Below are positions 4,922 to 11,853 of a stretch of 64,000 nucleotides of DNA, one piece after another. Below the pieces are notes generated by a model. The model ran no database searches. It saw only the letters and a list, made by a program, of their open reading frames with translations, and was not told the DNA's origin. Position numbers and translations under genes: made by a program. Position 1 is the first letter of the stretch. The number at the start of each line of letters is the position of its first letter. Source of the DNA: Octopus vulgaris (taxonomy: Eukaryota); NCBI GenBank assembly GCA_951406725.2, contig OX597824.1, positions 2,914,001-2,978,000 on the forward strand, read 5' to 3'.

Positions 4922-5311
4922 GGTAGATAGACAGACAGACAGACAGACAGACAGATAGATTGAAAGATAGATAGATAGATAGATAGATAGATAGATAGAT
5001 AGATAGATAGATAGATAGATAGATAGATAGACGGAGAGAGAAGAGGGAAGGAGGCTAGGTGAGGTGGAAGAGAAGAAAAAATAGAGACAAAGAGAGAGAG
5101 AGAGAGAGAGAGAGAGAGAGAAAGAAGTAACTAAAGGAATAAAGATGTGGAGAGTTAAACAGAATATTGAAATAAATAGGTAGCTAGCTATCTAGGTTGG
5201 TAGAAAGACAGACAAAAAGAACAAATAAACAAATAGATTGATAGATAGATAGATAGATAGATAGATAGATAGATAGATAGATAGATAGATAGATAGATAG
5301 ATAGATAGATA
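4922..5311. repeat. (GATA)n/(GACA)n microsatellite complex flanking the 3' end of the Tx1 element
   Basis: Direct reading of tetranucleotide arrays, interrupted by GA-rich sequence. Confidence 0.9.
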
Positions 5312-5828
5312 AGTTTCTTTATTGGCCACACAGGGCTGCACACAGATGGGACAAGTTACAAGGTAGAGCTTTTCTTTTGGGGGATGAAAAAAAAAAAACA
5401 AAAAAACAAAAAAAGGGGGTGGCGTAGGTTTCGATCAAGAGGGATCGTAAAAGGGAAGAAAAGAACAAAAATAAATAAATTAATTAAATAAAAAATAAAT
5501 AAGAAAAATAAAAATAAAAAAAAAGAAAAGGAAAAGGAACAAAAGAAAAGAGGAATGAAAAAAGAAGAAAAAAGGGGAAGAGGAAAAAAAGGAACGATCA
5601 ATAGGGATCGTGTATCACAGTGTTATGATATATGGTGTAAAGGGGAAAGCAAGTAAGGTTTATCCGTGGGAAGAAAAGCCTACGAAAAAGACCACGGTAA
5701 CCTTGGTCAATATTGTTATGTGTTACCACATTTGTTTGCAAGTGGGTAACCCTCTGTTTTCAATTTCTGGCTTCATAGGATTATGCTCAAGGTGGCTTCG
5801 TCATTCATACGTGCCATCCTTGCTACAT

Positions 5829-8800
5829 TCACCCATCTTTTTTAAAACATTCGCTAGACAAAACTTGCCTCTCAACTCTCACTTTCCTTTTCAAGTGGTA
5901 CTTGAAGAAGTTGATGAGAGATTGACCAGAGAGGAAAGTGTTTGTCTCCAATCCTTTCAGACGCGTCCACCAGATACATTCTTTCGCCATAGCCACAAGG
6001 ATGATGAAAATAGCTCTTCCTTCCCGTTTGAAGGAAGGAGGCGCGACAATATTGACGATAGACTCAGCTGATAAACCGACTCGTCCCACACGTGACAGCA
6101 GTTGTTCGACATAAGCCCACAGGTCGGAAATTGTTGGACACTGCACGAGTGCGTGCAGAACGGTTTCGTCGCTCTGACCGCATCTCGGGCAGGTCGGCCC
6201 CGTGTTTCTCGAGCCGTGTCTGTAGAGCTTATCCCGAACGGGTAGCGCTTCTCGGTAGCACTGCCAGGCCAGGGATCTCTGGAAGTTGTCCATGGGCCCT
6301 GGCCCGAAAGTCGTCCTGAACAGGCGGGTCAGGTACTCCTCGTCGACGTCCAGGTTCGCCCCGAGCTCGTCGTCGTACCTCCCCTCCATTAATCCCCTAT
6401 AGAATGCTTTGGTTGTGTTGAAGTCACTCAAGGTCGACCCAGGACGGCAGAGTTGCTTGAGAGCAACGCGACACTCGCGCTGCCATTCGCCCTTCCTCGG
6501 CCTCTTTTTGATCCACGACTGCAGTTCGGTCATGGAGACGAGCTGCGGGAAAGCGTGCCTCACAAACGGCGACCACACCTGTTCACCGTCGTCTACATAG
6601 AGCCAGAGATGTCGCAGTCTCAGCACGTGTCTGCGCATCATCAACCACGGCATGCCCAGTCCTCCTTTTAACGGGTGTTGACAGCAAATGGATTGCCTGA
6701 CCATCGGGACGCATCCTTTCCACAAGAAGCGAAAGAGAATGCGTTGTAGTTTGGTGATGGTAGGGTCGGGAGAAGGCACGACGGTCAGGCGGTAGTAGAT
6801 GACGGACGCGATGTACGTGTTCGCCACCCCCGCCCGACCTTTTAGGGACAGTTTCCTCTCGGCCCATTGCCGGGCGAGAGTGACCACCCTCCTCGTTATC
6901 TCGTTCCAGTTCTTTTCCACTTGGAGGTCCGGACCAAACCAGACCCCAAGCAACTCAACCGGGCCGTCGGTCCAGCGTCCCACGACGGAGGAGCTGGTGG
7001 ACGGCATGGGCTTGTTTCTCCAGGTGCCTAGTCGCAAGCCCACTGACTTTTCCCGGTTGATTTTCGCTCCTGTCACCGCTTCGTAGTTTTTCAGTGTCTC
7101 GCCGACCAGCTCGATGTGCTCGTGGCTAGACACTATGACGGTGACGTCGTCCGCGTATGCAGACACGCTCGTCCCGCATCCCAGTTCTCGCGGGATGCCC
7201 CTCAAAGTTGCCAGCTTCCGCAATAATGGCTCGAGAGTCAATACGTATAGAAGCGACGAGAGGGGACATCCCTGACGGACCGAACGTGCGATGTCGAAGG
7301 GTCTCGATAGATGTCCATTCACGCGAATTACCGAACGGATGCCTCTGTACAAAGCGGCTATCCAGCCGCGGAAGACGGGACCGAAGCCAGCCGCTCTGAG
7401 GACCGCCTCCAAGTATCGATGGTCCACCCTATCGAAAGCTTTCGATTGATCCAAATTGATCAGCGCTCCACCCATGCCAGGTTCGTTAACTACCCTGTCT
7501 ATGATGTAGCGCATCAGATGGAGGTTGTCATGGATGGTCCGGCCCGGCACGGCGCATGTTTGCGCCTTGTCGACTAGTTTCTCGATGACAAGCGCCAACC
7601 TCTTGGCTAGCACCTTGGCCAAAATTTTCAAGTCTGCATTAAGCAGAGTGATGGGCCTAAAGTTATCTATTACATTTCCCTTGTTTAGATCTTTCTTCAG
7701 CAGTGTTACGGCTCCTCGGCTCACAAAACCAGGAATGGTCCCGTTTTGCTGCCAGTTGCAGTACACCACCGCCAAGAGATCTCCAAACAAGTCTGGCATA
7801 CAATTGTAAAGCTCGTAGGGTAGACCATCCAAACCCGGTGATTTGTCCCTCGAGCATTCTGCCATCGCGTCCTGCACTTCCGCCGCCGTGATGGCACCTT
7901 CGCAGCACCCTGCCTTTCTTGTCGAGAGTCGTGGTAGGCTATGTAGGTAGGCACTGAAGTCCACCCTACGTTCTTGCCCTCCACTCGTCCCGAACAGTCG
8001 GGCAAAATGCTGCTGAAAGGCCTCACACATTTTACTTGGCTCGAGCAATTCGCGCCCCTGTTTATCTACCAGGGACCGAATGGTGGCTTTGTTGCCCTGT
8101 TGCGCCTCTGCCACCCGGGCCTCTCTCGCGGCTCCAACACCTTCGTTCCTTAGAGCACGCATCCTAGCTCTGACAGCACATCCTTCGTGTTTGGCGTTGA
8201 AGTGTTGGTCGAGGGCCAACCTCGCCGCCAAAACGTCGGATGCGATGCCGCTTCTAATTGCCTCTTCTAGCTTCTTAACTAGCTCACCCTCTACTCTATT
8301 TCTATCTATGGCTAGTGCTTTGCTGTACCTAATCGCTTCTGCTTTTACTGCTCTCTTGAGGGCAAACCACCATTTGATGTTGATGATGGCTCCCGTCAAA
8401 GCTCTCTTTACTAGTGTGCTAATCCGGTCTCTGAAAACCTGTCTCGATGGGAAAGACGCGTTTAGTTTCCAGTATCCTGGACCCTGCCTAAGTGTCTTAC
8501 CTAAGCCTAGCGTACATGTCACAAGTTTGTGATCCGTGTAGCTGACAATGTGGAATTGTGGACATCCTATGCTATCTCTGTCTACTGTCCTACACAGTAT
8601 CCTATCTAGATACGATCTCGACGACCCGATGCGGTTGTTCCATGTCCACGTTGGCGCATTCGGGTGGTCAGACAGTTCAAAGCGTCTGAGCAGGTCTCTG
8701 AGGTATTTGCATCCCCGTCTATTCCTATCTCTACCCACGTAGTCTACATGCATGTCCAAGGTAGCATTCCAATCCCCCACTAAGAGTAAAGAACGAGACG

Positions 8801-11156: not shown

Positions 11157-11371
11157 AATGAAAAATGGCTAAAAAGGACCAACGAAAGTTTTGAAAGTTT
11201 TTGGTAATTTCGCCCATATAGGGGCGGAATTCTACGTGAATAATTCTCAGGTTTTTTAGTGAATGAACTTGCACAACGATTAAAACAAAATATTTGACAA
11301 CAAGGAGTTTTAAACATATAAAAGTGGCCAACTTACGTGGAACCGAAATGACTAGCGTCCGTCCATTGTGA

Positions 11372-11853
11372 AGATAGATAGATAGATAGATAGATAGATA
11401 GATAGATAGATAGATAGATAGATAGATAGATAGATAGATAGATAGACAGATAGATAGATGCATACATACAAGCATACATGCATATATAGGTAGGTAGGTA
11501 GGTAGGTAGGTAGGTAGGTAGACAGATAGACAGACAAACAAATAAACAAATAAATAAATAGATAGATAGAGATAGATAGATAGATAGATAGATAGATAGA
11601 TAGATAGATAGATAGATAGATAGATAGATAGATAGATAGATAGATAGATAGATAGATAGATCGATAGAAAGATAGATAGATAGATAGACAGACAGATAGA
11701 TAGATAGATAGATAGATAGATAGATAGATAGATAGATAGATAGATAGATAGAGATAGATAGATAGATAGATAGATAGATAGATAGATAGATAGATAGATG
11801 CATACATGCATATATAGGTAGGTAGGTAGGTAGGTAGGTAGGTAGGTAGGTAG
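11372..11853. repeat. (GATA)n/(GGTA)n microsatellite complex flanking the 5' end of the Tx1 element
   Basis: Direct reading; same orientation as the array on the other side of the element. Confidence 0.95.

Follow-up and report, generated by a model that had tools for sequence, protein, structure and literature searches.

A 64,000-nucleotide stretch of Octopus vulgaris DNA (assembly GCA_951406725.2, contig OX597824.1, positions 2,914,001 to 2,978,000; hereafter the window) carries a frameshifted, full-length copy of a multi-copy long interspersed nuclear element (LINE) family of the L1/Tx1 group, in register inside a GATA block. The LINE occupies positions 5312 to 11372 on the minus strand (6,061 bp; GC content, 47%, versus 38% for the window) and is bounded by one perfect (GATA)18 array on each side, in identical orientation: one at its 3' end (5240-5311, reading TATC on the element strand), and one at its 5' end (11373-11444), which continues as GACA/GATA to 11452 as the remainder of the split block. 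On the element strand, the layout is (TATC)n-TTCACAATGG ... GCCAATAAAGAAACT-(TATC)n with no A-tail; the sense 3' end, AATAAAGAAACT, directly abuts (TATC)n, and the longest A run in its last 30 nucleotides (nt) is 3. An earlier note, made from the letters alone, had reported GATA on both sides in the same orientation and no poly(A), and the perfect (GATA)18 pair and the tail-less 3' junction bear this out. The 4-bp register is kept across both LINE/GATA junctions. A long nonrepeat target site duplication (TSD) was sought across the flanks and none was found, flank similarity being repeat derived only; the TSD is not resolvable, the insertion being inside a repeat.

From its 5' end, the element comprises a 222-nt 5' untranslated region (UTR; 11151-11372), open reading frame 1 (ORF1; 9239-11150) in three frames (pieces 10599-11150, 9748-10515, and 9239-10198), a short spacer, ORF2 (5829-9194; 1,121 amino acids [aa]), and a 3' UTR with a long U-rich tract (5312-5828), all on the minus strand. 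The 3'-terminal 41 nt (5314-5354, with AATAAA at 5318-5323) are shared by an abundant short interspersed nuclear element (SINE) of the window at its own 3' end. ORF2 encodes an apurinic/apyrimidinic endonuclease (APE; Exo_endo_phos, E = 2.8e-15), a reverse transcriptase (RT) with a YADD motif (RVT_1, E = 6.9e-31), and a zf-RVT domain (E = 1.9e-07), all identified with Pfam; the endonuclease catalytic residues N8, E37, Y112, D141, N143, D197, and H222 are all present. ORF2 terminates ~20 aa earlier than its homologues, and other copies differ in length near the stop. The middle piece of ORF1 has one CX2CX4HX4C knuckle and a likely RNA-binding region; its zf-CCHC match (E = 0.089) was below the Pfam cutoff, its look-alikes in the ESM Atlas were CCHC and ZCCHC3-RBD (0.88 to 0.91), ORF1 weakly matched the ORF1s of related LINE loci, and a single-sequence fold reached a predicted local distance difference test score of only 39.6. 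Since other copies differ in length at the ORF1 and ORF2 breaks, this copy is likely dead. The three-frame ORF1, the early end of ORF2, and the two-unit host repeat described below go beyond the earlier note. An Rfam search over 4500-16000 returned nothing above threshold, and no tRNA was found.

On the plus strand, the host locus consists of two compound-repeat units, each running from head through GATA block to tail; in unit 1, the GATA block is split by the LINE. The unit 1 head (5172-5239; TAGG-like, AGAC, and AAAC/AAAT; motif at 5206-5235) aligns to the head of unit 2, and the unit 1 tail (GCATACAT..GCATATA followed by (TAGG)8) lies on the far side of the LINE at 11453-11527. Unit 2 (11528-11853), with the same head and tail around an uninterrupted 241-bp GATA block, serves as an empty-site model in cis. 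In the window, the head motif had just two matches (5206 and 11528), as did the tail motif (11453 and 11793), a rarity that a shuffle null flatters, the motifs being of low complexity. The window's other GATA cluster (30336-31487) has neither motif. Three tandem ~430-bp units of unique DNA, (TA)n, and (GATA)n/(GACA)n make up 30336-31741, a GATA-bounded local duplication without LINE sequence.

Because unit 2 is an uninterrupted paralogue in cis, the GATA array likely predates the LINE, and because the head on the left and the tail on the right of the LINE come from one host unit, TATC is not merely a 3' tail. The same paralogue makes it likely that the element inserted into a GATA array, as the earlier note had proposed, rather than bringing a bare TATC tail. 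Its further suggestion that the element seeds or extends GATA arrays found no support: the head-to-tail length of unit 1 minus the LINE is ~157 bp, versus 241 bp in unit 2, and seeding was rejected at this site, where net growth was not seen. A few GATA units may have been gained at insertion (the rejoined perfect run would be 36 units, versus at most 22 elsewhere).

The LINE belongs to the L1 group of APE-type LINEs, as judged from its encoded proteins. The best match of ORF2 in PDB was human L1 ORF2p (E = 4.7e-49, residues 4 to 866), with R2 reaching just 3.8e-20; this match and the Pfam domains support an APE-RT LINE of the L1/Tx1 group; the earlier note had called it a Tx1-clade element. 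Membership of Tx1 itself is plausible. The ORF1 of Tx1 elements typically combines an RNA-binding domain with a CCHC knuckle, which is not known from mammalian L1. The nearest named ORF2 relatives were from Argonauta hians (59% identity over 1,097 aa and 65% over 637 aa), and identity was 70% to P0001 and 68% to P0386. An IQ-TREE quick run (49 rows, SH-aLRT support only, careful search unfinished, without a verified Tx1 or mammalian L1 row) placed the LINE, the Argonauta sequences, P0001, and P0386 in a clade of their own (support, 100), sister to ENA families; the backbone joining fish, amphibian, coral, and mollusc relatives was unresolved, and the clade stood apart from Takifugu BAD04856, which we take to be the Kojima-Fujiwara Tx1 deposit (Keno). 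Scores with phmmer, obtained from different libraries, were 425 bits for Patella, 342 bits for fish, and 170 bits for human L1.

Distant relatives occupied neighboring locus tags: all 11 listed members did so in Patella (SNE40_003393 to SNE40_003415), and runs of neighboring tags were also seen in Metynnis and Pleurodeles. Adjacent tags would be expected of array-targeting elements, and P0247 (Patella caerulea), P0300 (Metynnis), and P0471 (Pleurodeles) suggest undescribed families that target tandem arrays.

The LINE stretch was present in 20 of 24 public runs, under four organism codes. Four runs were examined and held 53,910, 40,915, 36,106, and 16,859 matching contigs. Summed read depth, which is not copy number, dropped from 3' to 5' in all four (in run X1, 1.5 million at 5696-5899 versus 64,000 at 10796-10999), which fits a large multi-copy family of 5'-truncated copies. 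The public runs contain many relatives nearly identical to the LINE; other family copies there extend over it to at least ~11,340, and the present copy is apparently full length. In 4/4 runs, depth climbed again at 11204-11396 relative to the preceding bin, a possible sign of an internally deleted derivative. At 5772, many contigs diverged from the element into A-rich sequence (element strand), perhaps because they belong to a subfamily whose 3' UTR differs.

All eight other window matches (at least 26 of 41 nt) to the last 41 nt of the LINE were 3' ends of the abundant ~240-bp SINE, presumably the octopus CORE-type family, with copies at 14976-15213, 18312-18549, 22866-23095, 33414-33656, 36656-36842, 51447-51867 (a dimer), and 55068-55296. 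These ends matched 28 to 34 of the 41 nt ungapped (best, 83%), as in a SINE-LINE pair with a shared 3' end; in bivalve pairs, tail homology spans 35 to 61 bp at 72 to 95% (PMC11481361). Judged from the alignment, the shared 41 nt shows homology at the lineage level and is not proof that this LINE family mobilized the SINE. A stable hairpin was absent from the shared 3' end (5 folds; z, -0.96 to +1.31), so a structured tail for RT recognition is not shown. The main octopus SINE is possibly paired with a Tx1-like lineage, a pairing that may so far be unreported. A third published octopus marker primer matched the window SINE with 4 mismatches (PMC6404728).

We lean toward the reading that this LINE family prefers (GATA)n as its target, which a single insertion cannot prove. 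Perfect GATA arrays make up 1.46% of 55,556 host bases, and GATA-class arrays called by TRF make up 3.3%. This low share speaks for the preference, as do the tail-less, in-register joins to GATA at both ends, the undisturbed twin of the split unit, the full set of endonuclease catalytic residues, the recurrent use of microsatellite targets by Tx1-clade families (TC, TTC, TTCC, and TTTC; PMC4494074), and the likeness of the predicted AGAT to the AGTT downstream of the Tx1L nick (PMC1950540). The neighboring locus tags of distant relatives, if they reflect array targeting, point the same way. Mechanistically, the nick made by the APE endonuclease would lie in the GATA strand, most simply at the T/A step (GAT^AGAT); the transcript would run beyond AATAAA into UAUC repeats, and annealing of its UAUC end to the GATA 3' end so released would prime reverse transcription. 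Under such annealing, the transcript would pass from AAAGAAACU into UAUC rather than poly(A), and the pairing of UAUC with GATA would explain why the 3' junction is clean and tail-less, why the orientation is fixed, and why the 4-bp register is kept. Annealing-assisted priming is known from R1-clade work. Abundant microsatellites might act as harmless landing sites.

Several observations weigh against a GATA preference, and the foremost alternative, possible if on the unlikely side, is chance: in a genome rich in microsatellites, a nonspecific, AT-preferring LINE happened to hit a GATA block, and that insertion is why the window drew attention. The sample is one insertion, and all microsatellites together make up 8.6% (perfect) to 14.3% (TRF) of host bases, so a chance insertion is not negligible, even if the share of GATA itself is just 1.5 to 3.3% and in-register junctions would arise at random about 1 time in 4. 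Between its anchors, the hairpin of the endonuclease is 9 residues long, as in L1, versus 11 in Tx1L and TRAS1, and this too counts toward chance; target specificity is, on the other side, common in the Tx1 group (PMC4494074). TATC followed the SINE 3' end in 0/8 copies, a count that at a GATA background of 1.5 to 3.3% speaks only against strict shared targeting, and the best SINE flank duplications were an ordinary 7 to 18 nt in 5 of the 7 copies examined; therefore, either the SINE was mobilized by a sister LINE family or strict targeting does not hold. That SINEs resembling the LINE at their 3' end insert outside repeats fits chance; the absence of SINE pieces from arrays (0 of the 19 listed, scored by eye; P = 0.05 to 0.18 at the all-microsatellite rate, not significant) counts against it. 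Out of six LINE pieces in the window, two were embedded in arrays on both sides (the GATA LINE and a CR1-type LINE in (CATA)n), for which P (at least 2 of 6) was 0.09 to 0.21 with any microsatellite and 0.014 to 0.09 with tetranucleotides only.

The public runs also count, weakly, against the preference for GATA and include one point for chance. GATA was found at 0 of the 24 loose ends listed (out of 5,291; 13 of the 24 on the 5' side), and one contig of run X5 had 174 unmatched letters 5' of 7178; the contig may be rearranged, or it may come from a truncated copy lying beside non-GATA sequence. Both lines of evidence are weak because read mapping skipped repeat-rich ends and most of the loose-end rows listed resemble diverged subfamily sequence. 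Overall, the window evidence is suggestive rather than decisive, and the prior from Tx1 biology bears much of the weight. By the Kojima criterion, a target-specific family has more than 20% of its copies flanked by one sequence type (PMC4494074).

Searches farther afield did not find further junctions. Neither viral contigs nor prokaryote genomes contained the LINE 3'-end motif (0 matches in each), and protein scans of both turned up no relatives. A metagenome scan returned 80 loci, all distant (segments mostly 23 to 35%, short ones up to 54%), and 0/80 had a GATA/TATC run of at least 16 nt. IYLS repeats, which could be derived from TATC and mark a junction, occurred in 0 of 614 stored proteins. 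Two Octopus cyanea (GATA)19 locus primers did not match the LINE (best, 6 mismatches; PMC6404728). Full-text literature searches revealed no GATA-targeting LINE among the passages and listings covered; Repbase or Dfam may already name the family.

Other LINE pieces in the window also lie beside simple repeats. A CR1/Jockey-type LINE (43790-46172, minus strand), 5' truncated within its endonuclease, abuts (CATA/TACA)n at 43403-43779 and 46174-46574 in one orientation; it is a second candidate for a microsatellite-targeting family, and it may point to a general effect, a further point against a preference particular to the GATA family. Older CR1 pieces lie at 58790-59670 (plus strand), just after (AT)35, and at 48690-49360 (plus strand), with no adjacent array. 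The 3' parts of a restriction-like-endonuclease LINE, presumably Dong/R4-like, lie at ~56100-57115 and 48035-48281 (both plus strand), the first abutting (AAT)n and then (AAG)n.

A loose preference, in which the family, like other LINEs here, favors flexible, TpA-rich simple repeats at large (GATA, CATA, and TA), with GATA one target among several, or its insertions survive best there, seems quite unlikely to us. It would account for the truncated CR1-type LINE that joins (CATA)n at both ends, the CR1 piece at 58790 adjoining (AT)n, and the 3' end, which we assume to be Dong-like, that runs into (AAT)n; the SINE pieces outside arrays and the CR1 piece at 48690-49360 do not follow it. Also in its favor, endonucleases of the L1 type respond to how flexible the DNA is and not to its sequence (PMC1950540), and Waldo-A and Waldo-B accumulate passively near CA repeats (PMC3812793). 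It is highly improbable that TATC is the LINE's own 3' tail that seeded the array, in the way that microsatellites arise from LINE 3' tails in snakes (PMC6050309), or that the assembly was misjoined through GATA repeats, as repeats can be, given the head and tail of one host unit on either side (each motif only twice in the window), GATA at the 5' end too, a rejoined block shorter than the uninterrupted one, and no enrichment of transposable elements beside ATAG in the snake study (PMC6050309).

Two further features were seen. A GIY-YIG fragment (1716-1997, minus strand; E = 5.3e-05), probably Penelope-like, ends near (GAT)n at 1322-1498, and a palindromic element resembling a miniature inverted-repeat transposable element occurs at 60174-60400 and 3484-3800, the 60174 copy flanked on both sides by (TA)n.

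The GATA insertion is real and the target variant likely new, the latter left unproven by one insertion. A true preference for (GATA)n would bring a mixed-base tetranucleotide, as a new class of target, into the recurrent evolution of APE endonuclease specificity, would offer a natural enzyme for asking how a hairpin of L1 length reads GATA, and would tie a major octopod repeat class to microsatellite load; it would also call for caution with GATA markers, whose flanks may derive from LINEs. Tx1 elements have long been known to target microsatellites, so the surprise is moderate. A broader scheme, tentative and in our judgment unlikely as a whole, has octopod LINE lineages partitioning microsatellites as landing niches (Tx1-like in GATA, CR1 in CATA, and Dong in AAT), with GATA targeting independent of Kibi and Koshi and a dominant SINE that took the 3' end and escaped targeting.

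Waldo, Mino, and Dong, which fall in the R1 and R4 clades, also target microsatellites. Their targets are ACAY for Waldo, AC for Mino, and TAA for Dong (PMC3812793), with Mino placed in R1 (PMC3124438); the octopus LINE resembles them in its probable microsatellite target, a tetranucleotide in one of these cases, and differs in clade and motif. O. vulgaris itself has 80 L1-Tx1 families (56.3 Mb, 13 recently active; PMC13282606), among which this family is probably already counted, and the accessible part of that source contains no target analysis of them. Described Tx1-clade microsatellite targets are TC (Kibi), TTC (Koshi), and TTCC/TTTC (crocodilian families) (PMC4494074). Like these, the octopus element is an APE-RT LINE of the L1/Tx1 group with a microsatellite on both sides (PMC4494074, PMC3812793); unlike them, it is flanked on its own strand by (TATC)n and not by TC, TTC, TTCC, or TTTC, their targets being pyrimidine-only strands whereas TATC is mixed, and its identity to Takifugu BAD04856 is just 26%. 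The preference in the Kibi/Koshi group is known from many copies and here is drawn from one. Xenopus Tx1L is likewise a sequence-specific APE LINE, whose endonuclease has AGTT downstream of the nick, compared with a predicted AGAT here (PMC1950540, PMC4494074); it targets a DNA transposon, and its hairpin is the longer by 11 residues to 9. Crocodilian SINEU share the target and 5' heads of their Tx1-Mar partner (PMC4494074), and the octopus SINE is similarly tied to an L1/Tx1-group LINE; unlike SINEU, it shares the 3' end and does not lie in GATA.

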